Of a stretch of 64,000 nucleotides of DNA, positions 144 to 57,086 are shown piece after piece. The notes beneath the pieces are model-generated. The model saw only the letters and a list, made by a program, of their open reading frames with translations, was not told where the DNA came from and ran no database searches. Positions within the stretch are counted from its first letter, which is position 1; every line of letters starts with the position of its first letter. The translations under genes and the position numbers were made by a program. This stretch comes from Mustelus asterias (taxonomy: Eukaryota), in NCBI RefSeq assembly GCF_964213995.1, contig NC_135804.1, positions 59,954,001 to 60,018,000 of the forward strand. The letters are read 5' to 3'.

Positions 144-449
144 CCGCCGGAGTAACTTGGAACAAAGTGCTTCAGGTCCCTAAATACTTGAAGGTGAGCA
201 GAGGCGCGAATGCTTCCATGTTCTGCACATTTCCCACATTTCAAGATGCGCCCGATGTTCGTTGGTGGAGACGCGGAGAGCAATCCTTTCTCCAACCAGA
301 CAGCAGAAAGCGATTTGATGTGAACAAGGAAAGCAGTTCGCTTGAATTCCTGAATGTGACTTTTGCAGATTCCGGAGTGTATTATTGTAAAGTAAAATAT
401 CCAGAAAAATCTAATGAAACTGGAACTGGCACCCAGCTTACTGTATACG
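144..449 (+). CDS. Ig V-set (VJ-type, germline-joined) exon of a V-C1-TM immune receptor gene; leader exon lies upstream of the window
   Basis: Pyrimidine tract then cag acceptor (141-143) and G|gtagg donor (450), both phase 1. Translation (A)AGVTWNKVLQVPKYLKVSRGANASMFC...VRWW...SSLEFLNVTFADSGVYYC...GTGTQLTVY has the B-strand Cys, C-strand Trp, DxGxYxC and the J-like GxGTxLxV motif. Confidence 0.92.
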
Positions 450-617
450 GTAGGTGTTATTGTAAACGGGAGGATTTCAGCTCAGCGCCACATATGCAAT
501 TTGATCCTTTTTATCACTGGAGGAAAAGCAATTGCGAATTATTTTTACAGAACACTGGATTGTCCTCCATTGACCTCGATGCACAGTGGATATATTAGTT
601 CGAATAAAAGCAAATGA

Positions 618-830
618 TTGCGGATACTGGAATCTGAAGCAAAAACAGAAAGTGCTGGAGAATCTCAGCAGGCCTGATAGCCTCTGTAGATAGAGAACAG
701 AACTAAAGTTTTAAATCTGGGTGACCTGCTCTGACGAACGGTCGTCAAGTCTCGAAAGGTTAGCTCTGTTCTCTCTCCATAGATGAAGACAGAGCTGTTG
801 AGATTTTCCAACAGTTTCTGTTTTTGTTAT
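618..830. mobile_element. Inverted (hairpin) pair of Penelope-like terminal-repeat fragments with a degenerate hammerhead motif
   Basis: aaaaacagaaagtgctggagaatctcagcag is imperfectly mirrored by ctgttgagattttccaacagtttctgttttt. CTGACGA at 731 and GAAA at 754. Similar relics at ~860-1060, ~2635-2720 and ~32250-32370. Confidence 0.6.
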
Positions 831-3472
831 TTTAGATTAGAAATCGTGCAATGGAAAAATGCGAAATAAAAAGACAACATTTTGGAAAAAGTCAGCAGGC
901 CAAGGAGCTTATGTGGGGAGAAAAAACTCTTTCATTGTCGATTATGAAAATCGACCTGAAACGTTAGCACGGTTTCTCTACACAGATGTTCCCTTACCGG
1001 CTAACATTCTCCGCATTTTCAGTTTGAATTTGAAATTTCCTGCCTCTGCAGTGTTTTGTGTTGATGGTTGAATGGGATTTCAGTGTCTGGTTCCTTCATG
1101 TCACAATGACGGTGCCACAACTCAACAATGGAATCAACTTTAACACCTCACAGGACAAACCTTTTACAAATTTTGAATATCAGTTTTTTAATCTGAACAA
1201 GAATGAATATTCGCTGCGTGCTCGGTGACACCCGCAGTTGGAACTGCGAAGTGTAACAAATCAAAACAAGTCCAAAATGGAGTTGATTACAAAGAGAAAG
1301 AAGTTTTCGGTGAAAGTCAGCCCAGTCATTCACGGTATATCATTTTGTTGCAGTTTGCCGTTTCCAAATCGTCTCTGTGCCGAGTTCGTTGAGCTAAATC
1401 AGGAGGCGAAAATCAATTGGTATTCTTACTCCTCACTGCTCCCGTTTTAAGTTGAACAATTTGGTAATATTTACAAGGGACTAGACTGTAGCTAAATTCC
1501 ACCCAAAGGTCAGAAGCGTTGCGTTATTTTGCCAGTCACCTTAAATCGGTCTTCTGGTTATCGACTCTTGTGTCGCTGAAAACACTTTCTCCTTATTGAC
1601 TTTATGAAAACTGATCAGAACTTTCAAAGTCGCTATCCAGCCTCCTCTAAACATTATCACGTTTAAATAGAACAGCCGTAGCTTATTCAGTCTCTGCATA
1701 TAATCCAAGTCCTTTCACCCTGGTAAAGATCCAGCATTCTCAGTGCCTTCACAATAAACTCAGGTGAAAACTCACTAAGCACAGCGACGAATTTTCCTCA
1801 AACCAGATCCTTTTTTCCGCTAACAGCTCGAAATTGCCGATGTAACACTTTCTATACCCCTGTGCCCGAAATTTGTGATGGACAGAGTTTTGCTATGTTT
1901 CAGTATCAACCCTATGTCCGCAGTTTATCCTTGGTACATGGGTCCATTTATATGTTTCACATTCCAAACTTTTCACAAACCGGATTCTACAACCCTGTGA
2001 AAGGAAGGATCTTGCCCTCAATGCTGGATTCCACTCCGGGTTCGGGACTTTGCAGGACAGTAAAGGTGCCCGATCCTTTTGTTTGAACCTCTTGGGTACA
2101 CCACCTGAATTTCCTATGGTATTGTCATAACTGATAAAGCGGAAGCTGGATATCACCGAACATTCATATAAACACCTGGGATCCCTTTTGGTAATTCACG
2201 ATTCCCATGTACACGTCCCATGCCCAGGCGAAAGTTGTGGTCAGAGATCGAGAGAACACTGGCTTATTTTTCCCCAGCAGTTTAAAACAGGCCCATATGA
2301 AAAGAATTGAGAAATTCTGAGGCTTTGCTGGAATAACAGCCAACGTAATATTTACTGTTAATAATGCCTGTAAATTACTAATTTTCTACTACTGCAATGT
2401 CGCAAAAGTAGACTCACAAGTAAAATATGTTAAACAGATTGATTATAATAAATAAATCTATGTAAACCTAACAAGGCACTTTACAAGGTGATTGTGGATA
2501 GAGTGGGCAGACTGATAGAGCGTTTCGCATCAGAAAATGGTAAATTTGGACTGCTCGAAGGAAAATCTTCTCCAGACAAAATGCGTTCAGCTGACCGAAT
2601 GACGCGACAGCAAACACCTGGAATTAACGGCTCAAAAAGCAAAATACTGCGGATGCTGGAAATCTGAAATGAAAACTTCATGAGACCGGCTGTGTTTACC
2701 CAGCAGTTTTTGTTTTCATCCCTGGAATTAACCCCTGGGTTATTTTTCCTATTCGGTTTCAGTCATCCGTATGGGTATTATGATCTATATAGATACATAT
2801 AATTATCAAAATAAAATCTTTCCTGGTTTACAAAATACTCTAACCTTCATTCCCTCCTCGAGAAAGATCCTTTCATGAATGATGCAAGAATTGAAACCTT
2901 CAGCATAGACACTGAAATGTTATATAATCAACAGTATCTTGTCAGGAGTCGATTTAGATATCGGAGATATTTTGATTTCACACACATTTTGATTTTACAC
3001 ATTAACCGAAAAAATCTGTTTTGAAACTAACTAAATATTCGAAGCGGGCCATTTTTTCAAATCATCACACTTTAGAACGTCAATGATTCTTGCAGGAAAA
3101 AAAACCTGAGTAGAACCCAATGTTCGTGCAGACTGGTTGGTGCTCCCTTTCTGATATATTCAGGCCGAAATCTCACTCGAGGTCACTGCTGCCACACACA
3201 ATTCCGCGCCAGGATCTGCTGATTTATTTCCGAAATGTGATACTTTCTTCGCTGGTTGTTATCAAGTCTGAGAGATTGGTCATCTTTGTGTATCGCTTGC
3301 TAAACATCCGGCATTTTTGCTGAGCATCGGATAACATTGTATGCAATAAATGCACGTCAGAAGTTTCAAAAGCACGATAACTGTTATCACCGTACGAGTG
3401 TAAGAGCGTATCGAGGTTAAGCCACTGAGAATATTCTCCTTTTAATTCAATTCTTTTTCACCCTGTTAAAAG

Positions 3473-3769
3473 TTCCCCCAGCACCACTGAAAATCGTTCC
3501 GTTTGAAGAGAATTCAGCGACTTCTCGAAGATTCGAGTGCAAAACGGCTGCATTTTACCCGGAGGATTTACAAATCTCCTGGCAAAGAGATGGTGTGGAA
3601 ATTCTGGCCGGAATAGAAACTGTGAGAAACGAGACAGTGGATGGTCTTTTTGAGGCCTGCAGTTCTTTGGAAGAAGCGCAGCCTCTCCAGAACGGAGTCG
3701 TTTATACATGCCTGGCATCTCATATCTCCCTTCAGGTGCCCGCCAGCGTCAGCTACACCGTCATGCAAG
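3473..3769 (+). CDS. Ig C1-set exon of the same receptor
   Basis: Acceptor ag at 3471-3472 and donor G|gtaagg at 3770, phase 1/1. Translation VPPAPLKIVP...FECKTAAFYPEDLQISWQRDG...DGLFEACSSL...YTCLASHISL shows the CxxxxFYP, W, DGxF/Y and YxCxxxH C1 signatures. Confidence 0.92.
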
Positions 3770-5031
3770 GTAAGGTTGGAAACATTTACTGCAGCGAGTG
3801 GGGGGAAATGCTCCAAACTGTAGTTATTTATTAGATAGGAAGGGGCAATTGTTTAAACTTGAATATACGGGGTGAATGTGGACTTAATCGCGATGTCACA
3901 TCAATGAAAATGAATTAAAATAATCAAGATGGTCGTTGGAGAAGGGAGAATATGTCCCTGAAAAGATCTGAAACGGGAAGTTGATGTGCGAACAGTTCGA
4001 AAGTGAAAGCTTATTTCTCACCAAATTCTTGCCAAATGAACTGAACTTACAAATGAAATGGATCGGCTTTAGTATAGTCATTTTTAATTGGGACCGTTCC
4101 TGTGTGCAACTTTAGCCAACATTGTTTGAGGGCATTTCCTTCACAATCCAGATACTTTTGACCATTATTAACCTATTTCTCTTTTTATCCAAACATTAAA
4201 CTTCGGAAACACCTTCTTTCGTGGTTTTACTTCATTCACTGAATTCCCTCGTTCTTCAAATTTTTGGAAATGCTGAAGCACGAAGAATTGTGTCTAATGC
4301 TCCTCTGGTGACAATTTTGGACCTTTTACTCCAATAAACAATTGTTCATTACACTGTGGGTGGAAATTTTATCAATAAGGGAATAACAGTGCAAGTACAG
4401 AGCATTTGGTACATGGTGCCTGTATTGGTAACAGCGTGTCTGCCATGCCAGGAGCCGACCCAACCTACCAGGGCGAATATCAGAAAACCTAAACTATGTG
4501 TCGTCCTGATTAAGTTAGCCGATCACAGACTGATCACCAGCGAGCTTTATTTTCATTGATGAGGACGGTGTTGGGTGCCCAACTTGTAGTGTCCCACGTT
4601 ATTATTATAGAGGTGCACTTTTGTGATTTTTCTACCCAGCCAAAAATATGTTGGATTTGTTTTTGAATTGTTTATTGGCATTGCTCATAAACGAGCGGAG
4701 AGAACGGAGCAAACACATTCTGACTGAAAATGGACATCATTGTCCTCTGAGATTTGAAGAAAAGTCAATCGCCAAAAGAATGGCGCTGGCACCGAGCAAC
4801 AGGCTCTCTCGCAAGGTGGAATATACTATGTTAACACGTTCACTTGATTCTCAGTTTGGGGATTGTATTTTGAGGTTATTATCGTACGTTAATTGAATTT
4901 AATATCGGGTCCCAAGTTTAGAGTAGCAATTTTATGGATCCCTTTCATTTATAGAAGCCAGTGCTATTTGCTTCCATTCGACAATGCTGATATAAACAAT
5001 TAAATGTGTATATTTTAATATTGCATTGTAG

Positions 5032-5135
5032 AGTACAGTTTCCGCAATGTGATGATTTCACGGTATGTTCTCGGTTTTTTGATAATTCTTGGACTGCTGG
5101 GCATAATTGTGAACCATGCTACAGATTTCAATTGA
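5032..5135 (+). CDS. Transmembrane exon with Arg in the TM segment and a very short tail ending in TGA
   Basis: tag acceptor at 5029-5031, phase 1. Reads EYSFRNVMISRYVLGFLIILGLLGIIVNHATDFN*. TGA at 5133-5135 is followed by a strong AG|gtaaga donor at 5138. Confidence 0.78.
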
Positions 5136-6075
5136 AGGTAAGAGAACGCCATCTTAATTCCGTAAACCACGTTGAAAGTATATACAGAGTTAACATTGGT
5201 GGGTTCGAAATGGGCAAGTCAAGTAATAAATTCCGAACGTCAATTTTTAGTTTTGGCTTAGTTTTAGCTGCTTTTATTAAAAAAGGGTTTGGTTTCAACC
5301 TCTCACTTGAGAAAAATGAGCACAACATATTTCAGAGCAGCACTACTGGAAGTTTGGTCTTCTTTTAATCGTTTAAATAGGGTATCCTCTGCTCTGTCCG
5401 GTCGCCCCAGTGACCTCATGGGACATTTTCGTAACTCCTGATCAGTATTTAGCCTTTAACCTTCTTCACTGAAACCGATGCCCCGAATAACGATCTGGAG
5501 AAGAATGTAATGTTGATTTCCATCCAGCTCGCTCTGAAAACACAGGTAGTTTCATCTTTTCCAGAGGACATCCAAACAAACATCTTCTAATGTGTTTATC
5601 TCCGTGCGATGCCCAAGCGTTGCATACGTCTTTATTAAGAGTCAAAGGGTAATTATTTACGTATGCAAGCTATGGCTGGATACCAAAGCCTTTTGGCTAA
5701 CATTAAGGCGTCGCATCAAGCCCGTGATTGGGTGTAATGCCTTATCTTGTCAGTTTGGACTTTCGTTGTCTCTCTTGTGGGAACCATGAATTGGAAACAA
5801 TTGAAATTTGAATTTCGTTTTTGGAGCAAGAAAAGAAAGAATTCTGGTTTTCCGGGTCCACTCTGCGCATTGGTTTCTAACTTCATGGAGTAAATAATTA
5901 AAAAATAATCCGCTGCATACCAAGTGAGTGCAGACAATTTGAATATGTCAACTCAGATATTTCACCGAGAGCTGTATTTGTATTTAAATGTTATTCTATA
6001 TCTAATGAGTGAAACCCCGTCTTAGGTAATCAGGAGTTCACATTTATCTTTTCTATAAAAGAGATGTAACACATA

Positions 6076-6124: not shown

Positions 6125-6518
6125 TGAATGAAACAGTATCGCCAAAAGAAACTGAAAGCATAAACGCAAGTTTAGGAAGCTGATGGTTTTGTAATATTGG
6201 AAATAGTTACATATTTTTCTGAATTAAGCTTGCCTAGGCCCTGGTTGTATTTATGGTATGGATATGTTAATAATTATCATTGAATCCCAATGAGGGGATA
6301 TCTTTGGAGACAGTTCCTTTAAGTTTGATATTGATCCAGTTGAATGCGCATCCGTGAATCTGGAAATATAAATGCCGTGCTGAATGTACTTGCGGATCTC
6401 TGGATATTGACGCTGACGGGATGAAATGGGAACTGTGTGTGGATATAAAGTAGAAAAGAGTAACTAAAATAAAGTGCATTGTTTCGAAATACTTTTCACT
6501 TTTGTTTTTAATGATCAG

Positions 6519-6950
6519 GTAAAGATCGGCTGATAATTTCCGCCTCTGTTCATAATTGCACAAGAGCAGTACCTTGCCCTTTGGGAATGAAGAACACGTG
6601 TTCAGATACAAGTGGGAGAAGAAATACACGAAATAAGAAAGAAGATGAAGAAGCCACAATCAAGACGGATGAGGGGCGAGTGCAGCATTCGCTTATAGTC
6701 ATTTTAATTTGCATTTCACTACACTATCTTTCTGTAAGATTAGAATATGAAAATACAATTGTAGTTGGCCCTGTGGATAAAATCAGTTTAGTGCATTCCA
6801 TGCAATGCAGCAACAGCAATGGCCTTGTTTGAATGCTCATGTTTTTGTATTTTTCGGTGGGATGGGGGGTGGGGGGGGCACATATCTTGATGTATGAATC
6901 TCGTTAATGGAAATTATTGTTTTCAATAAACTTAATTTTTAATACAAATA
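6519..6950 (+). other. Candidate terminal exon (3' UTR or former cytoplasmic exon) of the V-C1-TM gene
   Basis: T-rich tract plus cag acceptor (6516-6518). One frame is open to 6832 (KDRLII...KKEDEEATIKTDEGRVQHSLIVI...LHYLSV..EYENT). AATAAA at 6925-6930. Confidence 0.4.
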
Positions 6951-8589: not shown

Positions 8590-10700
8590 CTTCTTCATTA
8601 ACATCTATGGATATACACCAAAATTGGCAGAGGTAAAATAAGCTGATGCGTTCAAACATGTCTCCTGTTCCACCAGAGGCCCAAACATCCTGAACTACTG
8701 CTACACAAATATCAAACATGCCTTCCGCTCTATTAATCACCCATACTTTGGCAAATCAGACCACAAGGCTGTGCTCCAGCTCCCGGCTTACAAGCAAAAG
8801 CTGAAGCGGGAGAATCCATCAAAGAAAGTCTTGCAATGTTGGTCTGAGGAATCGGATGATCGTCTACGGGGCTGCTTGGAGTCAGTGGACTGGTCACTAT
8901 TTAGAAATTCTGCGACCAGCCTGAACGAGTACGCCACTAAAGTAACTGACTTCATTAGGAAGTGTGCAGAAGACTGGGTGCCAAAGAGGCAAATCCGTGT
9001 GTTCCCCAACAGGAAACCATGGGTGAACAGGGATATCCACTGCTTGCTGAATTCCAGGTCCGAGGTGTTCAAGTCAGACAACACTGACCTATACAAGATG
9101 CATGTGGATTCTACATTGTATTCTACAAAAATGCATGTGTCTTTATATGCCCTGTTTGTGAACAGAACTCCCACTTACCTGACGAAGGAGCAGCGCTCCG
9201 AAAGCTAGTGGCTTTTGCTACCAAATAAACCTGTTGGACTTCAACTTGGTGTTGTGAGACTTCTTACTGTCTGTCCAAGAAAGCCAGATACGATCTAAGG
9301 AGATCAATCAAAGATGCCAAAAGACAGTACCGAACCAAACTTGAGTCCCAGGCGAGCAAACACCGACCCCCGCAGACTATGGCAAAAACTGCAAGACGTA
9401 ACGGGCTACAAGATGAAGGCATGTAAAATCGGCAGCTCCAACGCACCTTCCCTGATGAGCTCAATGCATTCTATGCCGCTTTTGAGCAAGAGCTCAGCGA
9501 GAGTATGCCCTCCACCCTGGAAGCCCTGGATGAACCTGTATCTGTGGTCACCATTGCAGATGTCAGAGCAGCTTTCTCGAAGGTAAACCCATGGAAAGTG
9601 ACTGGCCCGGATGGGGTGCCAGGACGAGCACTCACGTCCTGTGCAGATCAGCTGGTGGGAGTATTCGCAGACATCTTCAACCTCTCTTTACAACAATCTG
9701 AAGGCCATATCTGCTTCAAGAAGACAACCATCATCCCGGTACCTAAGAAAAACCAAGCAGCGTGTCTTAATGACTATCGGCAGGTGGCTCTGACATCCAT
9801 CATTATGAAGTGCTTCCAAAAGCTAGTCATGGCACGAATCAATTCCAGCCTCCCGGCCTACGTGGGCCCACTACAGTTTGCCTATTACTGCAACAGATCC
9901 ACAGCAGACGCTATCTCCCTGGTCCTGCACTCAACCCTGGAACCCCAGCTAGATAACAAGGACACTTATGTCAGCCTCCTATTTATTGACTACCATTCAG
10001 CCTTCAACACCATTATTCACACAAAACGCATCTCCAATTCCCTAGCCTGGGCCTCAGCACCTCCCTCTGCAACTGGATCCTGGACTTCCTAACTCACAGA
10101 CCACAATCAGTAAGGATAGGCAACAACACCTCCTCCACGATCATCCTCAACACCAGTTCCCCAGAAGGCTGTGTTCTCAGCCCCCTACTATATTCCTTAT
10201 ACACCAATGGCTGTGTGGCCAAATTCCCCTCCAATTCGATTTTCAAGTTTGCTGACGACACCTGCGTAGTGGGTCAGATCTCGAACAATGACGAGACAGA
10301 GTACAGGAATGAGATAGAGAATTTGCTGACCTGGTGCGCAACAATAATATCTCCCTCAATGTCAACAAAGCAAAGGTGTTTGTCATCGACTTCTGGAAGT
10401 GTAAAGGAGAACATGCTCTTGTCTACATCAACGGGGATGAAGTAGAAAGGGTCGAGAGCTTCAAGTTTTTAGGTGTCCAGATCACCACCAACCTGTCCTG
10501 ATCCCCCCATGCCGACACTATAGTGAAGTCCACCAACATCCCTACTCTCTCAAAAGACTAAGGAAATTTGGCATGGCAGCTGCGACTCTCACCAACGTTT
10601 CCAGATGCACCCCCATAGAAAACATTTTTTCTGATTGTATCACAGCTTGTTACCACTCCTGCTCTGCCCAAGACCGCATGGAACTACAAAAGTCGTGACT
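8590..10700 (+). mobile_element. Rex1/Babar-type LINE, degraded ORF2 (endonuclease end plus RT)
   Basis: PAYKQKLKR...FPNRKPW, GPDGVPGR...FKKTTIIPVPKK...CLNDYRQVALTSIIMKCF, LQFAY, FKFADDT. Several frameshifts. Interrupted at ~9099-9275. Confidence 0.88.
9099..9275 (+). mobile_element. Penelope-like terminal-repeat fragment with an intact hammerhead core, inserted in the Rex1 LINE
   Basis: CTGACGA-A-GGAGC-AGC-GCTCC-GAAA-GCTA-GTGG at 9179-9211, followed by aataaacctgttggact. A caaga duplication flanks the insert and the LINE frame (YK|KARYDL) resumes after it. Confidence 0.8.
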
Positions 10701-15569: not shown

Positions 15570-18545
15570 AGCCAGCAACAGTGAGGAAACGGTGATATAT
15601 TTCCAAGTTAAGATGGTATGAAACTGAGGGGGAACCTGTAGATTACTATTGCGTTACCAAACATCTGCAGCCCTTGTTCGTCTTGGTTACAATGGTCACA
15701 GGATTGGAAGGTCCTGTTGAGGGAGCATTGGTGAGTTGTTGCAGAGCGTTTTATACATGGATGCCACTGTACATACGTGTTGGAGGGAGTGAATGTTGAA
15801 GGTGGCGGATGGGCCTCCAGTCAAATAGGCTGCTTTTCCCTGGATGATGTTGAGCTCCTGAAATGTTGTTGCAGCTCCATTTATGCATGCAACTGGAAAG
15901 CACTCAATCACACTCCCGGCTTGACTTGTAGACGATGGATAGGCATTGGGGAGTCATGAGTTGAGTTATTCGTCACCCAGTTCCCAGCCTCTTACTTGCT
16001 CTGGTAATCACAGTATTTATTTGGTTGGTCCAATTCTGTTTCCAGTCAATGGTAACACCCAGGATGCTGATAGTGGGGAATTCAATGAGGACAATTTAAT
16101 TGGAGATTGTTGGATTCTCTCTTGTTGGATTTGGTCATTGCTAGCATGTGTGGTGTGAATATAACTTGCTACTTATCAGTTCAAGCCTGAATGTTTTTCA
16201 GGACTTGCTGCATTAGGACATGGACTGCATCAGTATCTGAGATTTCACAAATGGTACTGAACATTGTGTAATCATCAGCAAACATTTGAACTTCCAACAA
16301 TATGATTTAAGGAAGGTCATTGATGAAGCAGCTGAAGATAGTTAGGCCTCGGACACTACCCTCAGGAACTGGTGTCGCGACTTTGGGACTGAGGTGATTG
16401 GCCTCCAACAACCACAGCAACCTTTCTTTGTACTGATATTTACTCTAACCAGTGGAGAACTTTTCCCTTGATTTCTATTGACCCCAATTTTGCTCAGGCT
16501 CCTTGGTGCCAAGTTTGGTCAAATGCTGCCTTGATGCCAACTGCAATCATACTCACCTCACCTCTGGAGTTCAGCTCTTTCGTCCATGTTTGGAACAAGA
16601 TTCTAATGAGGTCAGGAACTGAATGGCCCTGGCGGAACCCAAAGTTTCAATGAGCAGGCTATTTCTGAGTAAGTGCCAGTTCATAGCACGGTTGACATCA
16701 TTCTGCTCGTAACTGATAGTAGAGTGGTGGGGCAGAAATTGGCCGAGTTGGATATGTCCTGCTTTCTGTTTACAGGACATATCTGGGTAACTTCGCACAT
16801 TGTTTGGTTGATGCCAGTGTTGTAGCCGTACTGGAACAACTTGGCTAGGGGCATATTAAGTTCTGGAGCACGACATCAGACCTATTGTCAGAATATTGTA
16901 AAGGCTCATAGCCTTTGCTGCATCCATTGCTTTTAGCTATTTCTTGAATTCACTTGGAGTGAATTGAATTGGCTGAAGATTGGAATCTCTGATGCTGGGG
17001 ACTTCAGGAGGAGGCTAACATGGATTCAACACTTCTGGCTGAAGATGATTGCAAATGTTTCTGCCCTGCTTTTTGCGCTGATGTGCTGGACCCCTCCGTC
17101 ATTGAAGATTTCTTATCCGTCTTCTCCAAATAGTACAAAGAACAAAGAATAATACAGACAAGGAACAGGCCCTTCGGCCCTCCAAGCCCGTGCCGCTCCC
17201 TGGTCCAAACTAGACCATTCTTTTGTATCCCTCCATTCCCACTCCGTTCATAGCGGAGAGAGCGGGTAAATGGAGTTGAAATCAACCATGATTGAATGGT
17301 GGAGTGGACTCGATGGGCCGAATGGCCTTACTTCCGCTCCTATGTCTTATGGTCTTATGGTCTTATATGGCTATCTAGATAAGTCTTAAATGTTCCCAGT
17401 GTGTCCGCCTCCACCACCTTGCCTGGCAGCGCATTCCAGGCCCCCACCACCCTCTTTCATAATTTTATACACCTCTATTAAGTCTCCCCTCATCCTCCGT
17501 CTTTCCAGGGAGAACAACCCCAGTTTACCCAATCTCTCCTCATAACTAAGCCCCTCCATACCAGGCAACATCCTGGTAAACCTCCTCTGTACTCTCTCCA
17601 AAGCCTCTACGTCCTTCTGGTAGTGTGGCGACCAGAACTGGACGCAGTATTCCAAATGCGGCCGAACCAACATTCTATACATCTGCAACATCAGACCCCA
17701 ACTTTTATACTCTATGCCCCGTCCTATAAAGACAAGCATGCCATATGCCTTCTTCACCACCTTCTCCACCTGTGATGTCACCTTCAAGGATCTGTGGACT
17801 TGCACACCCAGGTCCCTCTGCGCATCTACACCCTTTATGGTTCTGCCATTTATCGTATAGCTCCTCCCTACATTATTTCTACCAAAATGCATCACTTCGT
17901 ATTTATCAGGGTTGAACTCCATCTGCCATTTCTTTGCCCAAATTTCCAGCCTATCTATATCCTTCTGTAGCTTCTGACAATGCTCCTCACTATCTGCAAA
18001 TCATGCCAATTTTGTGTCGTCCGCAAACTTACTGATCACCCCAGTTACACCTTCTTCCAGATCGTTTATATAAATCACAAACAGCAGAGGTCCCAATACA
18101 GAACCCTGCGGAACACCACTAGTCACAGGCCTCCAGCCGGAAAAAGACCCTTCCACTACCACCCTCTGTCTTCTGTGACCAAGCCAGTAGTTTATTAGTC
18201 CACTATCTTTCATGGCTGGATGTAGAACTGCAGAGCTCAGATCTGATCCATTGATTGTGGGATTGTCTAATAGCTCTGTCTATTGCACGTCGTTTGGCAT
18301 GCAAGTAGGCCTCTGTTGTAGCTTCACCAGGTTGGCACCTGAATTCAGGTATATCTGGTGTTGCTCCTGGCATGCCCTCCTGCATTCTACATTAAAGCAC
18401 GGTTGATCCCCTGGCTTCATGGTAATGATAGAATGGGGGTCCGCTGGACCATGAGATTACAAATTGTGTTTTTATACAATTCTGTTGTTGCTAATAGCCC
18501 ACAGTGGGGGCTATATGGATGGCCAATCTTAAGTTGGTAGATCTG
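15570..18545 (-). mobile_element. Old CR1/L2-clade LINE on the minus strand, interrupted by a younger CR1
   Basis: Degraded RT-like fragments (e.g. NIIQGKAAYL..NIHSLQH, QQHQIYLNSGA region). Split at ~17105 and ~18195. Confidence 0.6.
17135..18190 (-). mobile_element. CR1 LINE 3' part, with a + strand CR1 tail nested at ~17252-17365
   Basis: ORFs 18001-18213 and 17386-17922: [48 protein letters not shown]. Confidence 0.92.
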
Positions 18546-22828: not shown

Positions 22829-23100
22829 TTAAGCACGCTCCCCCCGGATCCGTCGTGGCAGCTGGACAGATTATGTTTTTGGACATAATGGTCACTTCTT
22901 TGGCATGGATGGCACACAGGTTGGTATCATCAAACAGGCTAACCAAGTACACCTCACTGGCTTCCTGCAATACTCCAATTGCAGCACTCTAATTCCTCAG
23001 CTCCGTTTTGAAGTCCTCGTCAATTTCCCTCTCCAGACGCTGAAAGGGCAGCAAACAGTTAAGGAACTTCGTGGAGTTCTGGTATCGGCGGATTTCTTGG
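22829..23100 (-). pseudogene. H3F3: 5'-truncated processed histone H3.3 pseudogene
   Basis: [63 protein letters not shown]...RIRGERA*. Has the H3.3-specific AAIG, no intron at LQ|EA, a stop and a frameshift. Confidence 0.9.
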
Positions 23101-23289
23101 CAACTGTCTTTCAAAAGAGCACAGGCTGCTTGCTGTGCAAATGTGTTATTGGACATATTCTGGGGTTCAGCTAAGGTTAACAAAGGCCCTCCCATTCACA
23201 CTATGCCATACATGCCTTTTTCAAACAATATTACTATCAAATTTTGCCGTGTCCTTCTTGTCTCACTTGTCTTGTCTTGCCCCGAAACC

Positions 23290-25270
23290 GGATCTGGGAT
23301 CCGAGGGAGAGAATGGTTGGAATCATGCCCATAAGGAAATGAGTAAAAGGGCTCCCAAGCTTAGGAAGGCGATTGCAATTGCCAGCTGTCTAGATCACCT
23401 CCTTGGTAGAGAAGTGGAGATTATCCAGGTTAAACGGGACAGAGAGACCCAGGTAACCCAACTAAAGCAGGACTTATGAGTGCTACCACATGCATACAAC
23501 AATTGGAAGCGGAGGTAGTCACACAAGAGAAAGGGAACCAGATTAATATGATACACATGAGCCAGTTGTGATAAAGCCTACCGAAAGGCGCAGCGCCCTG
23601 TCAGTGAGAGAGAGACTGCGCTGCAACAGGTGGAGGAAGTTAAACGTAAATGCAGCGACCTGCAGGCTGCGGTAAAAGTTTTGCACCAAGCAGGAAAAGT
23701 AAATACAGCCCCCGCAACAGACCACTCCAAATGCCTGCGCGAGATTGAAGATTTAAAATCACAACCAGCCATAAAAAGGGGTGTAATGTGTGCATACACC
23801 ACTGAAACCGGGAATAATGACCCAGAGGTAGAGTGGGGGGATTTAGAAGAGGATGCCTGCCATTATGCAACAGCTGGTGTCACTGCCGACTGGGCACCCC
23901 CACCTCCCTTCCCCGTAATGGAACCAACGGCACCACCTAATCTGGCCCCCATCCTGGAACACTCAGTCTCAGCCCCTAGTCCTATTCCCATCCCGATAAG
24001 TCGAGTCGCTCATCCGGCTCCAGTACCGATGAATTCGGTCACCACCCAACGACAGGATGGACAGAGCCACAGTGTGACTTATGTAACTCCATACACCATG
24101 ACACAGCTCACTGACATAGCTAAAGCGATTGGAGTATTTGAACCCTCCGGGGATCCACATGCTCTCTTTGACCAGATCACACAATATCGTGTTTTAAACG
24201 GCCGATGGCAGAAGGAGTTAAACTTATTTTGCTATGTTTAAGTCGTGCCATCCGTTCCGCCCTACCCGAACCCCAGAACATGGCAGGGAGAACCCTAACA
24301 GAAATGAAGGCAGCCATTCTGGCCGCCAAAGGCTACAATAGAGATGACCCGGTACAAGGCTTAAACAACTGCCAACAAAAGCAAGGGGAACACCCGGCAG
24401 CCTATGCTGGCCGACTATGGAACCAATTTGTTGTGGTTTTCAGCCAATTAAATCTAGTCCAATTAAACGCACATCACTGGCCCACATGGATCCGGACCCT
24501 GATAGCACACGCCACCGAGGGGAGTCGGAATGCCTGTGAGAATTTTGACCCTGATGATACTACACATACAGAAGCCTGGGCCATCCACAAAATGATTCGC
24601 GTGAGGGAACGCGAAATCAGACAAACAGATACCCCCAAGTCCATGAAGCAATGAATGATGAACCCGATCCATACAGACCCGGCCCCGGTTTGGTGTAACG
24701 AAGGGGGAGGTGGAAACAGGGGACTGGGAAACTCACCCCCATATACGCTTGCCAATCATCGATACAGAAGACTGCAGCCCCATGCAGAATCACGATATAT
24801 TCCCAACCCCAGTTACAGAGAACAAGATAGAACCAACCCCAGATATGCACCCCCACAAGCACAGTGTTATAACTGGGCAACCCAACCATTTTGCCCGGGA
24901 CTGTAGGGCACCACCACAGCAAACCCAGCACACCCATACACTATTGCTGATCGCCAATGCAGGGAACGACGAGGCCGCACAGGATTTTGGCCCAACCCCC
25001 GACACTGAGAACAATACAGAGCTGAGCACAGAGGCCCACGCCCACAAACACAGTGTTATACCTGCAGGCAACCCAACCATTTTGTCTGGGACTGTCGGGC
25101 GCTACCCAACTACCCCACATGACCATCTCAGCGGTTCCCCGATCGATGGACCCCGACCCATGCCCCTCGAAGGACGAGCCCAACAAGCCAACATAACCCC
25201 CACCCAGTATCCCGAGGACCAGCACACGCACCCTCGGTTCCTGCCCCAATTTACAGGGCTTCAGGAATAA
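23290..25270 (+). mobile_element. Endogenous retrovirus gag (degraded): coiled-coil region, PTAP late motif, capsid, two CCHC knuckles
   Basis: EVEIIQVKRDRETQVTQLKQDL...KCSDLQAAVKVL, PPPPFPVMEPTAPP, QKQGEHPAAYAGRLW, CYN(C)GQPNHFARDC and CYTCRQPNHFVWDC. Confidence 0.8.
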
Positions 25271-25874
25271 AACCCCAGCCCAGGGGCCCCCAACAAAAAG
25301 GATGGGGAAACCGCAAACCTTACCCTCTATGGCGCCCCTGGTACCGGGACTCCCAGAACCGTTTGACCCAGTGCTCACTACCAGAGGTGGTAATGCAGTG
25401 GGTACCCAGCAGCCAAAGCCCACCCACATAGCTTCCCTCCACTGAGGAAGAATCAGAACATCACAGTCCAAATTGTAAATAGCTTTATCCGTCCACTCCA
25501 TGCATCACCCAATTGAAAAGGGCTTCTTATCTGCCCACATTATACTGCGCCATAATCTTCTGACACACCACAGTTTGGTTGTGGGATGAAGAATCTATTG
25601 TTATACTGTGCCATAGTCCTCCAACAACAAGGAAACCTGCCATATGCCCAACCTTTTATTTTCACGTTCTGCAAACTCCTTACCCCACTCAACCCCATTA
25701 AACATTGATTGCCGACCAACTCTTCATATGACACTATTGGGCCTCTATTATTCATTTACTTATTTCCTTGTTATTTTTAAAAAGAAGGGAGTCATACGAC
25801 ATTCTTGTCAAGAAAAGGAAAAGAGAATCAGGTATTAATAAGATTTAACAGGTGCTACCTTGATCTCCCCCAGA

Positions 25875-26843
25875 ATGAACTACATACTTCTCAGCTATCT
25901 GGAGCTCCTCGTCCCAAACCGAACCACAGACACCACATCAACCGAAGACGATAAGATCAGCCTATGATACCCCGGATATACGTGGTTTACTCCACCAGAT
26001 GCAGGCAAATGTGAGAATGGCATCCTATGAGTACACTCCAATAAGAGTGTCACCTATGGGTGTAATAACCAAAGAGTGGTGTACGGGAAAGGTAATGGGA
26101 GCTCTGATTACTGCTCCCTAAGGAGACCCTCACTCGCGATTGGTGGGCGTACACTAACCATGGGTGCTTGGAGCTAGCCTGTCTAGCCCATGGCCAGAAA
26201 AAGGGCTGGAATTAGGAAAGAAGTGCCCCGGCCAGGTTATTCAGAACAAATACATATACTATGAAATTAAGAATGGGTTAAAACCAACTGTTAGCTCACC
26301 CATCCCCCTTGTCCCGAAACCACCCCAGGGCCCCAAAATGGGTTGATACTAAAACATACAGGGAAAATATTATTCGACAACACACACTATGAATTGGTAC
26401 CAGTAGTGGTAGATTTAGCCGGAACACAATTACCAGACTGGTGTCCCTCCCCACTTCGAAAATTGTACCTCCACTTGACCCAGAGGCTGCTAAGCCGAAA
26501 GACTGGGACACACGCGTAGGAAGAGACGCCGAGGTCAAAGGGGCGCAAGAGGAGGGAAATCCTGAATGATCTGGCACTGCATACAGAGCGGGGGTATCCA
26601 CCATTAACGCACTGAATGTGGCTGATTTGGATAATAAGCTCAGAGTCCTAACCCGACAAATTAAACAGACCTTGGACAGCTTAAATGAAAATGCTCGGCA
26701 AGGTGCCGAGGGAGATTTGGCTGAGAACAGGGCTAGTAACCTTATGGTTATTGTACTAGAAGGACATGTCCAAACTATTAATCAGATCGCCTGAGGGAGG
26801 GTGGAAGATGATGCCAGGCAACAGAACCGAACCCTATGTAGCA
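25875..26843 (+). mobile_element. ERV env, 5' half (furin site, fusion peptide, heptad repeat), degraded
   Basis: cccag acceptor just before ATG at 25875. GLILKHTGKILFDNTHYELVPVVVDL...DWC, RKRR at 26544-26555, then EILNDL..GVSTINALNVADLDNKLRVLTRQIKQTL. Confidence 0.72.
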
Positions 26844-27191
26844 AAAAACTAAACAAAAATTCTAGCAAGTTAGGAAAAATGGTTTGCATTTCACAAGTCG
26901 TGATGATCTTAATTAATCTGCATTTTGCTCAGGGCCTATAAACACTGCCCCACGTTATTCTCTCTACCATTCTCCCTACAGCTGAGGTTAAAAAGACTGG
27001 CCAGTAGTTGCATGACTTAACCTTGCATCATCTTTTGAACAAGTTTTCTTTTTCATATTTGCAATTATTCAGCCCTCTTGCATAAGCCCTGTACCACTGA
27101 AGAGGCTTGGTGAATTATGGCAGTACGTCTACACTGATCTCTCAGTATACTTTGATGCATCCCATCCACCCTGGTTATGTATTGTTGTACC

Positions 27192-28010
27192 TGTTAATGC
27201 TCAGATACTTTCGACCAGTTTGCTTACTCCAAGGTTTTACCCCGGTGACCTTATTTGCAAGATGGACAAAGGACAAACACAAGTAAAGGTTCAACAAGTT
27301 TATTAATAATAACACTATTAACCCTTAAATTACCTACATAAAACAAGAGGATACCCCAGATTCAAGTATACTACCCGCAAAGATGGTTTGGTTAAACTGC
27401 AGGCTCGATTCTCTGAGTCCCCCTGGTCTGTCATCATGAAGGTGAGTCTCGATGGCAGCTTCTTCCTTCCTTCTTACTCTGGTCAGTCTTCTGAATGGTC
27501 AAGGTCACCTCCCTCGTCGAGTCTTCGCTACTGGTGTATCTGAGATGTATGCCTTTATCCCCCTTTCTGCTTGCCTTTCCAGAAACTTCTCTGGCTTCTG
27601 GCCAATGAGGTCCCAGGAGGGGGTTCCAATGCCCAGTGGCTTTCTTGATGTCTGCCTGACAGGACACCAGGGTCCGCCGCCAGGTGTCCATCTCCATGCT
27701 GTTGCTTACATGTAACCTGTTGTCAGGTAAGCAACTGCAGGAACTCACGGTGACAGAAAGTCTGGCCAGATCTGGGCTTCTAACAATAGGCCAGTGCATT
27801 TCAATGGGGTGTGCTGATCTCCTGCTGGGTCTCAGTAGAGTGCAACGACCTTTGATAGGTGATTGATGGGTCAGGCCCAGACATGTTTGTGTATTTGTAC
27901 AATTGACTTGCCCAAGGTTTGACTGTGTTTGATTTTAATATGCCCAATTCTTTAATTTAGGATATCCAATTTAATCAGCCTTAAAACTAGGCCCTGATTA
28001 TATTACCACA
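27192..28010 (-). mobile_element. 3' LTR of the ERV, inverted
   Basis: Minus-strand polypurine tract AAGAGGAGGGAA (28011-28022) is immediately followed by TGTGGTAAT. AATAAA on the minus strand at ~27298-27303. Candidate end ...ATTAACA at 27192, which is the less certain boundary. Confidence 0.7.
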
Positions 28011-28159
28011 TTCCCTCCTCTTGATCCAATGAGCATCAACGAACCGGATCACACAATTCTTACCAAACCATCTCAAGAAGCAAGTACCCCGAATCTGGGG
28101 TTGATAGTATCATCCCTAACCCACAATAGTATCAACAAATTTAAATGAAGTAAAATAAT

Positions 28160-29355
28160 TAAAAAGAAACAATAAGAAACAATACATCAATCGGGTATAT
28201 ACAAAACAGAGCAATAAACAGTACAAAATGACAAGTGACTATACATATTAAATATAGATGGGAGAGTATCAAGGCTCTTGATTGTAGAGTCTTTCCTGAT
28301 GTCGGATGGCCCATGCCGAGTCCAAGTTTTGCAGAAAATCCTTCTTCCATCAGGCGAATTTAAATGTGAGGATTGGGTTAGGTACACTGCCATAAGTAGG
28401 ATTCCTATTATAGCCAGGTGTGACAGAATGCAGACCCATGGGTGGATTTGGACATTTGAACCCCAATCCCAGAGGAAGTGACTCTAATTTCACTAATGTT
28501 CTTTTTAATTCCCTTTTTGACAAAGGTCTTGTGTGCTGTGATCAATTGTGTCCGAATTTGCTGACGTTTCTCGGGGAGAAGTGTTATTCCAGTATCAAAT
28601 TTTTCAAAATAGTCGCCCAAGCTTTGTCTCAATTTCTCACCAGCATTTATTAGTGTTTTCTCTCTTCTGAGCCTATGTCTACCATCTCAATTAATCCTTT
28701 CCTGGCGGGACTCTGTGGTTTAATGCAAAAGGTAGTATTGTGGATGTTACAAGTGGCTGCCCCATACTGGTAATTTTCTAGCGATGTTGTAATACAATAT
28801 TCTCCCTCTCCCCTGTAAGCCACCCGGGTGACATCCCTTTCCAAATTTCGAATTTCCAGTGCAAAATTTAGGTCAGTGGTTGTTCTGAATCCACACAGGG
28901 CATGTTCATTTTCATACACCGGATATGGGCACACAACCATTTTGTCTGTGTGTTCACATTTTTCCAGACTGGTGCCTATGAGCTTCCCTCCTTTCTCAAC
29001 CACATGCAATAGAGTCCCCTGGTATCCCATCCACTTCCCTCCTTCAATGATCACTATATTTTTGGCTTCAAAAAGTCTCAACCAGACCTTATCTTTTCAT
29101 ATTACTGGGATCCCCAACACCATTCCTCGTGCAGCCCCCGGGGTTCCTCTACAATTATCGTTAGACCAGACCTTGGTCAGTTGCTGTAATTGGCAGTTAG
29201 TGACATTGGGGTATCTTTTTCCCTGGTACAGGTGTTCAATCTGTTCATCAGTGATCCAGGACGGAACTTTCCCCCTGCTAACCTGGTCGAGATTCTCTCT
29301 TAACTGCTCGACCATCCATTGCCCTTGGCTGCGACATAGGGTTCAGTTCTGTTGC
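28160..29355 (-). mobile_element. ERV env, 3' half (Cys-rich ectodomain plus TM), on the opposite strand to the 5' half
   Basis: TLCRSQGQWMVEQLRENLDQVSRGKVPSW...GMVLGIPV, LIGTSLEKCEHTDKMVVCPYPVY..CGF..GEYCITT..CNIHNTTFC, hydrophobic LILSHLYLICIVTCHFVLFIALF. Confidence 0.78.
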
Positions 29356-33251: not shown

Positions 33252-35926
33252 GACACAGTAAGAGGTTTAACAACACCAGGTTAAAGTCCAACAGGTTTAT
33301 TTGGTAGCAAATGCCATTAGCTTTCGGAGCGCTGCTCCTTTGTCAGATGGAGTGGAAATCTGCTCTCAAACAGGGCACAGAGACACAAAATCAAGTTACA
33401 GAATACTGATTAGAATGCACATCTCTACAGCCAACCAGGTCTTAAAGATACAGACAATGTGAGTGGAGGGAGCATTTAGCACAGGTTAAAGAGATGTGTA
33501 TTGTCTCCAGACAGGACAGTCAGTGAGATTCTGCAAGTCCTGGAGGCAAGCTGTGGGGGTTACTGATAGTGTGACATAAACCCAACATCCCGGTTTAGGC
33601 CATCCTCATGTGTGCGGAACTTGGCTATCAGTTTCTGCTCAGCGACTCTGCGCTGTCGTGTGTCGTGAAGGCCACCTTGGAGAACGCTTTCCCGAAGATC
33701 AGAGGCTGAATGCCTGTGACCACTGAAGTGCTCCCCCACAGGAAGAGAACAGTCTTGCCTGGTGATTGTCGAGTGGTGTTCATTCATCCATTGTCATAGC
33801 GTCTGCATGGTTTCCCCAATATACCAAGCCTCGGGACATCCTTTCCTGCAGCGTATCAGATAGACAACGTTGGCCGAGTTGCAAGAGTAGGTACCGTGTA
33901 CCTGGTAAATGGTGTTCTCACGTGAGATGATGGCATCTGTGTCGATGATCCAGGCACGTCTTGCAGAGGTTGCTGTGGCAGGGTTGTGTGGTGCCGTGGT
34001 TACTGTTCTCCTGAAGGCTGGGTAGTTTGCTGCGGACAATGGTCTGTTTGAGGTTGTGCAGTTGTTTGAAGGCAAGAAGTGGGGGTGTGGGGATGGCCTT
34101 GACGAGATGTTCGTCTTCATCAATGACATGTTGAATGCTCCGGAGGAGATGCCGTAGCTTCTCCGCTCCGGGGAAGTACTGGATGACGAACATTGTCATC
34201 AAACTAGCAGACAAAGGAGGGGCCATTGTCAGACTGAACAGAATGGATTACTGCAAAGAAGTGTACCGACAACTGAACAACGAGGAACACTACAGACAGT
34301 TACCCACAGATCCGACCAAAGAACACACCCATCAACTCAACACTCTGATCAACACCTTTGATCCGGACCTTCAGAGCACCCTCCGTGCTCTCATCCCACG
34401 TACTTCCCGCGTTGGAGATCTCTACTACCTCCCAAAGATACACCCGGCCATCCCATCGTATCGGGCAATGGGACCCTGTGCGAGAACCTCTCCGGCTATG
34501 TCGAGGGCTTCCTGAAACCCATTGTACAAAGAACCCCCAGCTTTTGTCGCGACACTACGGACTTCCTACAGAAACTCAACGCACATGGAGCAGTTGAACC
34601 AGGAGCACTCCTCGTCACAATGGATGTCTCGGCACTCTACACCAGCATCCTCCACAATGATGGCATTGCTGCAACGGCCTCAGTACTCAACGCCGACAAC
34701 TGCCAGTTTCCAGATGCAATTTTACAACTCATCCGCTTCATCCTGGACCACAATGTCTTCACCTTCAACAACCAGTTCTTCATCCAGACACATGGAACAG
34801 CCATGGGGACCAAATTCGCACCTCAATATGCCAACATATTCATGCACAAGTTCGAACAAGACTTCTTCACTGCACAGGACCTTCAACCAATGCTATACAC
34901 TAGATACATCGATGAGATCTTCTTCCTTTGGAGTCATGGTGAACAATCACTGAAACAACTATATGATGACATCAACAAGTTCCATCCCACTATCAGACTC
35001 ACCGTGGACTACTCTCCGGAATCGGTTGCATTCTTGGACACACGCATCTCCTTTAAGGATGGTCACCTCAGCACCTCACTGTTCCGCAAGCCCACAGATA
35101 AGCTCACAATGTTCCACTTCTCCAGCTTCCACCCTAAACATGTTAAAGAAGCCATCCGCTATGGTCAAGCCCTCCGTATACACAGGATCTGATCAGATGA
35201 GGAGGATAGCAACAGACACCTACAGACGCTGAAAGATGCCCTCATAAGAACAGGATATGGCGCTCGACTCACGATCGACAGTTCCAACGTGCCACAGCGG
35301 AAAACCGCACCGACCTCCTCAGAAGACAGACACGGGACACGGTGGACAGAGTACCCTTCATCGTTCAGTACTTCCCCGGAGTGGAGAAGCTACGGTATCT
35401 CCTCCGGAGCCTTCAACATGTCATTGATGAAGACGAACATCTCGTCAAGGCCATCCCCACACCCCCACTTCTTGCCTTCAAACAACTGCACAACCTCAAA
35501 CAGACCATTGTCCACAGCAAACCAGCCTTCAGGAGAACAGTGACCACGACACCACATAACCCTGCCACAGCAACCTCTGCAAGACATGCCGGATCATTGA
35601 CATGGGTGCCATCATCTCACGTGAGAACACCATCTACCAGGTACAAGGTACCTACTCTGGCAACTCGGCCAACATTGTCTCCCTGATACAATGCAGGAAA
35701 GGATGTCCCGAGGCTTGGTCCATTGGGGAAACCATGCAGACGCTGCGACAAAGAATGAATGAACACTGCTCGACAATCACCAGGCAAAACTGTTCTCTTC
35801 CTGTGGGGGAGCACTTCAGCGGTCATGGGCATTCAGCTCTGATCGGGAAAGCGTTCTCCAAGGTGGCCTGGTGTTGTTAAAACTCTTACTGTGTTTACCC
35901 CAGTGCAATGCCAGCATCTCCACATC
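33252..35926 (+). mobile_element. Younger Penelope-like element: RT plus GIY-YIG on +, with an inverted 3' copy (33252-34190) at its 5' end
   Basis: IVIKLADKGGAIV, MDVSALYTSI, QTHGTAMGTKFAPQYANIFM, RYIDE, FLD, WSIGETMQTLRQRMNEH. The inverted-repeat arrangement is typical of PLEs. Confidence 0.92.
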
Positions 35927-47601: not shown

Positions 47602-48873
47602 CTAGCGACTGAACCGCCTGGTTATCAGAGCCTCCCTGGCCACCCTCGCATGCCTCAGCTGAGATGCCAGCCCTGCATCACCTGGCAGGTGTTCCAAGGT
47701 GCTCTCAGCCTCCTCTTCCCCCTCTTCCCCTTCCTCCTCCTGCTGGTCATCCTCTCCAGTAATGGCTGGCTGGTCATTCTCCATGTCCTCTTCCTCCTCC
47801 AAGAGGTCACCTCGCTGCAGAGCCAGATTGGTCAAGGCACAGCACACCACCACTGTGCAGGAGGAGATCAGGGGGCTGTACTCGAGGGCCCCTCCGGGTC
47901 GGTCCAGGCACCGGAATCGCATCTTGAGGAGCCCAATGCACCTCTCTACTGTCACGTGGGTGGCTACATGCGCCTCATTATAGCGGGTCTCTGCCTCAGT
48001 CACAGGCCTCCGCACAGGCGTCATCAGCCATGTCCAAAGCGGGTAACCCATATCACCCAGGAGCCACCCCCGCAGCCTGGGCTCCTCCTCAAATGCTTGC
48101 GGGATGTCCGACCTCCTTATAATGAAGCTGTTATGCACGCTGCCTGGATATCTGGTGCAGACGTGCATGATGGTCATATTGTGATCACACAATTTTGTAC
48201 ATTCAGGGAGTGGAACCCCTTCCTATTAACAAATTGTCGTGGATTCTGTAGGGAGGCCCTGAGGGCGACATGGGTGCAGTCGACCGCCCCCTGCACATTC
48301 GGCATCCCCGCAATTAACCCCACAGCCCGGGCTTCCTGATGGGCCTGATCCAGGTTGAATTTGATGGACTGCCCAGCCCGGGCATACAGGGCTTCAGTGC
48401 TCTGCTTGACACAGGTGTGGACTGAAGACTGGGAGATGCCACAGACATCTCCACTCGGGCTCTGGAAGGCGCCAGTTGCATAGAAGTTCAGAGCAGCCAT
48501 CAATCTGACAGCCACTGAGAGTGGGTGCTCCCCCCCTCCCCCTGCCCCTAGGCACCAGGTCCTGCAACAGTTTGCACAGGTGTCGCATGGTATCCTTTCG
48601 CAGTCGGAGACATCGGCGGCATACGGTGTCCGACATCTCCTCGAAGGACACTCGTGCACGGAACTGCCGGGGTCTCTGCTCCCTCCTTCTCCGAAGCTCC
48701 CGCTCCGGGTGAATGACGGCCACCTCCTGCCTCTGATGGTCGTCTCCCTCCGGTCCTGCAAGTGGTACGGCCTGGGCCTCCTGGGCCCGCAGTTCTTCCT
48801 CCATGTCCTCCTCTTCGGCTCCAGCAGCAACCAGAAGAACAGCAAGATCGATTGGTTGCATTGCAAAAGACAT
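47602..48873 (-). pseudogene. Harbinger (HARBI1-like) DDE transposase with two frameshifts
   Basis: ALNFYATGAFQ, GISQSSV, GAVDCTHV, FVNRKGFHSLNVQ, YPGSVHNS, LLGDMGYP, VERCIGLLKMRFRCL. Frame changes near 48530 and 48185. Confidence 0.92.
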
Positions 48874-56841: not shown

Positions 56842-57063
56842 TGTGGTGAACCACTGTAATACTGTCTGTTTATGGGATATGCCTGGGCATGCCCCTGCTG
56901 TCTCAATCCGGGGCTCCGCCCTCCTCGGGGTATAAAGGTGGCTGCTCTCTGCCCCTTTTGCCTCAGTTCGGGTTAGCCATCGGTTTGGGAGTGCTTCTGT
57001 TCTTGTTAATAAAAGCCTGTTGTTTCACAACATCTAGTTTTTGCGTAAATCAATGGTGCATCA
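56842..57063 (+). mobile_element. 5' LTR of a Ty3/Gypsy element
   Basis: TGTGGTGAACCA...TGGTGCATCA, TATAAA at 56931, AATAAA at 57008. Confidence 0.8.
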
Positions 57064-57086
57064 ATTTTATTAACAACATTTTTGAA

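Follow-up and report, generated by a model that had tools for sequence, protein, structure and literature searches.

A stretch of 64,000 nucleotides from Mustelus asterias (contig NC_135804.1, positions 59,954,001 to 60,018,000 of the forward strand; hereafter the window, numbered from its first letter) contains a real gene for a non-rearranging receptor, in which a germline-joined V(J) domain is followed by one C1-set domain and a transmembrane (TM) segment. The gene belongs to a poorly characterised family of chondrichthyan VJ-C1 paired receptors. The copy in the window carries an arginine in its TM (Arg-TM form), and we consider it probable that it is an activating paired receptor, predicted to signal via an adaptor of the FcR-gamma/CD3-zeta type. 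Its mode of action would most likely be like that of SIRP-beta or NKp30, with the gene supplying the activating half of a receptor pair. Its parts are the following:

144-449 (306 nt), + strand: V exon, a short V-set domain with a germline-joined J-like G strand, bounded by AG/GT and open
3473-3769 (297 nt), + strand: C1-set exon, with two canonical Cys and an extra Cys at exon residue 62
5032-5137, + strand: short stalk and TM exon, with the Arg codon at 5061-5063; the stop TGA (5133-5135) precedes AG and a GT donor
5113-5135, + strand: putative site of a small frameshift, C-terminal of the TM, from three-frame translation against the tails of the relatives P0009 and P0016
6519-6930, + strand: last exon, predicted 3' untranslated region (UTR), with acceptor AG at 6517-6518 and AATAAA at 6925-6930; its 3' end is approximate

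The V, C1 and TM exons are each entered in phase 1 through canonical splice sites. Pfam recognises a V-set domain in the first (E 1.1e-14, profile positions 1-109 of 109) and a C1-set domain in the second (E 3e-8), and both exons are open with their canonical Cys, Trp and splice sites kept. The original prediction had placed a whole V domain, including a J-type GxG motif, in one exon without a recombination signal sequence (RSS), followed by an intact C1-set exon, and the coordinates, the AG/GT boundaries and the domain matches agree with this. No RSS was found near the V exon, and a relaxed scan of the 64 kb gave three sites, at 18506, 27927 and 52517. The TM exon had been correctly begun at 5032 in phase 1, but its end has to be moved from 5135 to 5137, where the GT donor follows; the stop codon lies 2 nt before this end. 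Overlooked at that stage were the TM Arg, the fourth exon at 6519 and the large paired family. The Arg codon falls where the TM helix has its N-terminal end, the TM contains no Lys, and no Cys is present in the translation of the stalk and TM exon, which gave 0 matches in PDB. In PDB the C1 exon was matched best by UrIg2, on a score adding up three C domains. Upstream of the window lies the leader exon; within the window the V exon and the single C1 exon are the only Ig exons of the family that were found, and blastn and tblastn detected no further family exon beyond 7300. A short TM-like match at 38615 was inspected and dismissed as chance.

Relatives of the gene are readily found among cartilaginous fish (P numbers denote proteins of our stored set). 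The V exon matches catshark P0001 at 77% and horn shark P0002 at 69% identity, the C1 exon matches P0001 at 75%, and in P0001 the TM exon is joined to V-C1. A profile of 40 relatives recovered 43 proteins among 8000 scored candidates, 42 with a chondrichthyan species name and one with an incomplete name, and a second, word-free search gave 63 representatives with E up to 1e-30; among 10 of its rows that were checked, 8 were chondrichthyan and 1 caecilian. Restriction to cartilaginous fish, within which members are present in chimaera, rays and sharks, is likely. Horn shark has at least 11 distinct ectodomains (pairwise identity at most 90%), all on one 99.65-Mb sequence, and in each chromosome-scale species the named members share one sequence length (catshark, 198,790,641; horn shark, 99,651,266; sawfish, 53,952,022), which suggests a tight cluster in each. 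The automatic names given by NCBI conflict: SIRP-like, B7-H6-like, tapasin-related, IgL-like and TCR-beta-like.

The gene models of P0002, P0007, P0011 and P0020 skip the TM exon and may either represent soluble isoforms or be wrongly built; in P0007 the C1 is duplicated. In reedfish, the accessible part of a supplement (PMC10751288) places a cluster with SIRP-like, tapasin-related and B7-H6-like names at 7.3-12.5 Mb of chr12, the beta-2-microglobulin chromosome, and this is a possible bony-fish counterpart of the family. Searches of the open-access literature yielded no account of the family; Ohta 2019, Kinlein 2021, Flajnik 2023 and Fu 2019, with their supplements, were outside this coverage and may mention it. 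The terms SIRP, NKp30, ITIM and MDIR did not occur in one elephant-shark supplement file, and the accessible parts of PMC10450919 and PMC3964593 (one supplement file) added nothing on the family.

The paired nature of the family emerges from 120 stored rows with a C1-profile score of at least 75, among which isoforms, fragments and many species are included. An Arg-TM ending in a shared [DEN]H was found in 15 of the 120, and in 35 a TM was combined with a long tail in which a tyrosine motif occurs. Five more had the tyrosine motif with no TM detected, another TM was present in 40, and in 25 no TM was detected. Among the stored proteins the top scores of the window's TM exon were to Arg-TM members; the tail exons of P0002, which encode an immunoreceptor tyrosine-based inhibitory motif (ITIM), were searched for in the window and not found (best E 0.71). 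Catshark P0006, an Arg-TM protein, and P0021, with a tail of an ITIM and an immunoreceptor tyrosine-based switch motif (ITSM), agree at 94% of 196 ectodomain residues. Related ectodomains thus joined to either an ITIM tail or a charged TM with a short tail are what defines paired receptors, and the near-identity between the two forms appears to be their signature. On a tree of 26 ectodomains (8 Arg-TM, 18 ITIM) the type changes 7 times, at least 3 of these being forced by starred branches, and the mean for shuffled labels is 7.1. Since type changes are as many as with shuffled labels, TM/tail type and ectodomain probably differ in history, as would follow from repeated ectodomain exchange between the two forms, such as by exon exchange in paired families.

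Partners of FcR-gamma carry an Arg in the TM's N-terminal segment whereas DAP12 partners carry a central Lys, according to the accessible part of Feng et al. 2006 (PMC1440944), and by this rule the N-terminal Arg of the window gene predicts an adaptor of the FcR-gamma type. The ligand bound by the V domain would be located on cells or on microbes, the TM Arg would pair with the aspartates of a dimeric adaptor bearing immunoreceptor tyrosine-based activation motifs (ITAM), and ITIM siblings on the same leukocytes may oppose the signal via SHP-1/2. In the usual logic of paired receptors, the inhibitory forms read a self ligand and the activating forms a pathogen decoy.

Several observations weigh against an activating receptor in a paired family. 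The tyrosine pattern is loose, the 40 rows with another TM fit neither type, and tail types were taken from automatic gene models. The Arg-TM catshark proteins P0001 and P0006 carry VxYxxL immediately after the TM, encoded in a frame not used by the window, and this string blurs the activating label for these two proteins. Finally, the window copy has a tail apparently cut by a frameshift and an extra Cys in its C1, which could be signs of decay.

The tail can be followed into the fourth exon. The first 20 codons of the exon at 6519 score 36-46 against the tails of P0006, P0009, P0011 and P0016, with a next-best score of 24 and a median of 16 among 128 stored proteins compared, so this exon appears to be a homologue of the short cytoplasmic exon found in Arg-TM relatives. 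At the end of the TM exon another reading frame ends in QISIE, as do Heptranchias tails. A small frameshift behind the TM would leave a tail of about 6 residues and, as predicted, turn exon 4 into 3' UTR; this exon is open for 103 codons, the stop used by the Heptranchias relative being lost. An assembly slip is unlikely to explain the frame at the TM end, because contig 14 of run X2, from another sample, spans 4661-5361 with 6 substitutions (places not listed) and no gap. A contig of run X1, from the same sample as X2, has one unplaced gap within a longer stretch. Where the window has the extra C1 Cys and the Ala preceding it (3656-3659), the X1/X2 contigs and the relatives have Ser and Val, which suggests that this Cys is unpaired and private to this copy or allele. 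Depth of the X1/X2 contigs over 1-534 and 3472-3738 is about 2-3 times that over the TM region; the excess may point to an almost identical paralogue in that organism, although copy number is poorly measured by contig depth.

These features raise the question whether the family is as proposed and the window copy itself a young pseudogene or decaying allele, of a kind that birth-and-death receptor clusters commonly hold. The frameshift, the lost stop of exon 4 and the extra Cys point this way, as does the observation that 5 of 6 exon differences to X1/X2 alter an amino acid (among 40 of 292 differences listed, in contigs that may include a paralogue). Against it stand the open V and C1 exons with their canonical Cys, Trp and splice sites, the short tails of variable length that Arg-TM relatives such as P0001 and P0018 also have, and the identical, ungapped frame in another sample. 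The stop just ahead of the last predicted junction would also escape nonsense-mediated decay, as stops close to that junction do. Decay of the window copy is on balance unlikely, and an intact activating form is the reading carried forward here.

The relationship of the family to other immunoglobulin-type receptors was assessed in trees with SIRP-like (P0168, P0132), UrIg2 (P0087, P0070), IgH and IgNAR, seven B7-like and two PRARP-like outgroup rows. Evidence backs the labels of P0168, which matches SIRP-alpha in PDB at 6.3e-43, and P0087; the others are provisional: P0160 and P0163 are taken to be PRARP-like, and the seven B7-like rows are presumed to be so, checks not having confirmed B7-H6. 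Single-domain trees held 45 stored family proteins and the window exon, and V+C1 trees held 24 or 14 family proteins with P0001 in place of the window; no NKp30, TCR, IgL-V or tapasin rows were part of them. The family was monophyletic in the V tree (96/94), the C1 tree (98/89) and the V+C1 tree (100/100, and 99/96 with a mixture model). One IgL-C-like row fell outside it in the C1 tree, as did one NITR-like row, by provisional label and on a long branch, in the V tree. The family thus appears as its own clade, nested in none of the SIRP, PRARP-like, UrIg2, IgH or B7-like rows, and the proposal of a poorly characterised cartilaginous-fish VJ-C1 family is sustained by these trees and by the searches above. 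The position of its sister group is less settled, since the approximately unbiased (AU) test rejected none of the candidates: SIRP (p 0.21), PRARP-like (0.41), UrIg2 (0.052), Ig+UrIg2 (0.46) and B7-like (0.37).

A rival reading makes the family a chondrichthyan co-orthologue of SIRP, the paired myeloid V-C1 receptors, with one C1 lost. SIRP has the same domain types and the same paired logic, SIRP-like recurs in many of the automatic names, and the C1 tree joins the family, SIRP and PRARP-like rows at 80/88. The AU test leaves family+SIRP standing under the mixture model as well (p 0.084), and SIRP-alpha ranks 6th in PDB for the family profile (2.9e-31). Antibody chains and UrIg2 outscore it there, however, the names are inconsistent with each other, and SIRP rows, of which there were two proteins, were sister to the family in none of five outgroup trees. 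SIRP has two C1 domains against one in the family, and a DAP12-type Lys against the N-terminal TM Arg. The accessible part of PMC12975943 gives SIRP as V-C1-C1, and a grouping table in that of PMC13262535 assigns the SIRP cluster to Tetrapoda. Descent from SIRP is in our judgement decidedly unlikely, and a separate paired family is preferred.

The V domain differs from those of antigen receptors in several traits. The canonical Cys are spaced by 54 residues in the window and by 54-60 across 46 family V domains, compared with 60-65 in SIRP-like, 61 in IgNAR, 66-70 in PRARP-like, 68-73 in B7-like, 71-74 in IgH and 74-75 in UrIg2 rows (71-75 for IgH and UrIg2 pooled). The J-type motif of the original prediction stands as far as its GxG is concerned, but the preceding residue is Thr rather than the Phe or Trp of antigen-receptor J segments; in the family, by a first-match pattern, the residue before the first GxG is never Trp (0/46), rarely Phe (2/46) and most often Asn. 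Three N-glycosylation sequons lie in the window V exon, one right before the GxG motif, and 36 of the 46 V domains have a sequon within their last 16 residues. These V traits, together with the lack of a stalk Cys, disfavour pairing of the kind seen in antigen-binding fragments (Fab).

A structure model of the catshark orthologue (pLDDT 89.4), built on that protein rather than on the window protein, has no strand of at least 3 residues between C (56-61) and D (74-79). Its best V-only fold match was a skate VNAR (Z 15.5, rmsd 2.0, 97 aligned), tied with others; VIA-align matches were tied within Z 14-16, with NKp30 absent among the 50 listed. Foldseek returned a list filled by Fab chains, and an ESM Atlas search only generic V/C1 clusters. 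Fold searches with this model do not appear to place the family.

Location was assessed from the chromosome sizes of orthologues and published gene lists, assuming the same assemblies; the argument concerns the orthologues and does not place the window itself. According to Verissimo et al. 2023 (PMC10751288, supplement, as far as accessible), the catshark gene list of chr13, which carries the major histocompatibility complex (MHC), ends at 163.4 Mb, and chr16 (paralogon 12) and chr21 (paralogon 9) measure 145.0 Mb and 71.0 Mb; the 198.8-Mb catshark family chromosome matches none of these. The same source shows that catshark tapbpl is on chr16 and not on the family chromosome, that sawfish chr3 (paralogon 1) and chr12 (IgH/TCR-delta, genes at 55.6 Mb) have genes beyond the length of the 53.95-Mb family sequence, and that the sawfish family gene LOC127577509 is not in the gene list of the MHC chromosome chr34, which carries three NCR3-like genes. 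Paralogon 19 is ruled out only if chromosomes are numbered by size. A point against an off-paralogon placement is the 193.5-Mb family chromosome of the white shark, by size indistinguishable from chr8 (paralogon 9, genes to 170.9 Mb) in these lists. On this comparison of sizes and lists the orthologues appear to be located outside the MHC chromosome and also outside most paralogons of the MHC, synteny to which the original prediction had suggested checking.

That prediction had named, among families with a joined VJ, genes proposed to resemble the pre-RAG receptor, and the gene might be a relic of such a precursor, a PRARP/VJC1 orthologue forming one chain of a TCR-like dimer. The VJ-C1-TM layout, phase-1 introns and basic TM residue speak for it, and so does the match of the C1 exon to UrIg2. 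The PRARP-like pair is sister to the family under the mixture model (70/89, unstarred), but not under LG+G4, and the label of this pair is provisional. The off-MHC location of orthologues (chromosome size and gene lists speak against paralogons 1, 9, 12 and 14) and the unusually short V weaken this reading, and the near-absence of J Phe/Trp, the terminal-V sequons, the missing stalk Cys and the existence of ITIM-bearing siblings also stand against it. A mention in PMC10751288 places PRARP, as a VJ gene, within the MHC, and joined-VJ genes are listed as CD79, NITR, SIRP, CD8, NKp30 and PRARP (PMC11599192), in the accessible parts of these papers. A pre-RAG relic appears quite improbable; in the trees the family is a separate clade, with a possible kinship to PRARP-like VJC1 genes at the weak support given above.

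Going by some automatic names, the gene would encode not a receptor but a V-C1 ligand or chaperone, B7-H6-like or tapasin-related. The catshark model had B7-H6 as one of its leading fold matches (Z 15.5, rmsd 4.0, 188 aligned, tied with others), and family+B7-like was among the unrejected groupings. The seven B7-like rows lack the GxG motif throughout and form a clade of their own with the longer Cys spacing, and ITIM and Arg-TM forms are features of receptors; a ligand or chaperone is thus extremely improbable, and a receptor remains the favoured identity. Four other identities were rejected. UrIg/UrIg2 was dismissed on the single C1 and on the sawfish family sequence being shorter than the position of the chr12 genes; germline-joined IgL on the TM exon, joined to V-C1 in P0001, and on Thr, not Phe, before GxG; TCR on the lack of an RSS-split V/J and of a stalk Cys; and NKp30/NCR3 on the C1 exon and on the absence of the family member from sawfish chr34.

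Several mobile elements or pieces of them lie in the remainder of the window. No host protein-coding neighbour was recognised in 7300-64000, about 57 kb downstream, where in 33 hand-picked open reading frames (ORFs) Pfam found only transposon domains, and the family genes are therefore either widely spaced or the window gene stands at a cluster end. The elements are:

44426-44704 (+) and 47605-48222 (-): Myb/SANT-like ORF facing a DDE_Tnp_4 transposase in a GC-rich block (Pfam), presumably a PIF/Harbinger-type element
56850-59980 (+): protease, reverse transcriptase and RNase H of long terminal repeat (LTR) retrotransposon type, in consecutive broken ORFs
23063-29096: retroelement-like ORFs, by eye, gag-like on + and envelope-like on -; Pfam gave no match on 7 scanned ORFs
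9427-10089 and 34362-35189: non-LTR reverse-transcriptase fragments
near 14154, 17386-18279, 49733-50879, 53614-54996 and 62256-63998: pieces resembling long interspersed nuclear elements (LINE), by eye

For the receptors by which sharks make natural killer (NK)-like and myeloid self/non-self decisions, a candidate family is defined here. It occurs in chimaera, rays and sharks, numbers at least ten genes in one species and carries five conflicting automatic names, and its matched activating/inhibitory pairs are concrete reagents for ligand screens. A VJ-C1 layout that serves paired innate signalling off the MHC also bears on the use of this layout alone as a mark of a pre-RAG precursor. Tentatively, one may speculate that this is a large innate paired family of cartilaginous fish, as old as the chimaera-shark split, assembled from parts of antigen receptors (germline VJ and C1) and derived from the VJC1 lineage of PRARP, with the role of KIR, LILR or NITR; we hold this for doubtful. 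If true, the ITIM forms would read self ligands such as MHC class I, and the Arg-TM forms pathogen decoys, via a VNAR-like shortened V.

Among known systems, SIRP-alpha/beta/gamma are alike in their germline VJ-type V and C1 and in the pairing of ITIM-bearing with adaptor-coupled forms whose ectodomains are nearly identical, as described in the accessible part of PMC12975943. They are unlike the shark family in being V-C1-C1 with a DAP12-using activating form, whereas the family is V-C1 with an N-terminal TM Arg and appears as a separate clade. PRARP/VJC1 shares the non-rearranging VJ-C1-TM layout and the single-exon VJ, which the window gene has too, but PRARP, in the sources as far as accessible, is MHC-linked whereas the shark family appears to lie off the MHC, is multigenic and paired, and has a shorter V. 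UrIg and UrIg2 are also elasmobranch genes with VJ in one exon followed by C1; in the accessible part of Flajnik et al. 2025 (PMC12227049), UrIg is a secreted protein with three C1, the number in UrIg2 is at least nine, and they are located in the MHC and the antigen-receptor complex. The window gene differs by its one C1 and separate clade, against at least three C1 and a long V. Receptors of the Fc-alpha-RI type coupled to FcR-gamma resemble it in the N-terminal TM Arg and motif-free tail, in the part of PMC1440944 that is accessible. Similarity to the shark gene is one of mechanism and not of ectodomain ancestry, their ectodomains being of C2 type. NKp30/NCR3 is a single V domain with a TM Arg and CD3-zeta/FcR-gamma coupling, and is thus alike in its VJ-type V and TM Arg, but it lacks the C1 that the shark family has, and its NCR3-like counterparts are on the sawfish MHC chromosome, the family being elsewhere. 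The NITR of ray-finned fish are likewise clustered paired receptors with a VJ-type V, and differ in their second domain, which is of I/C2 type where that of the shark family is C1.

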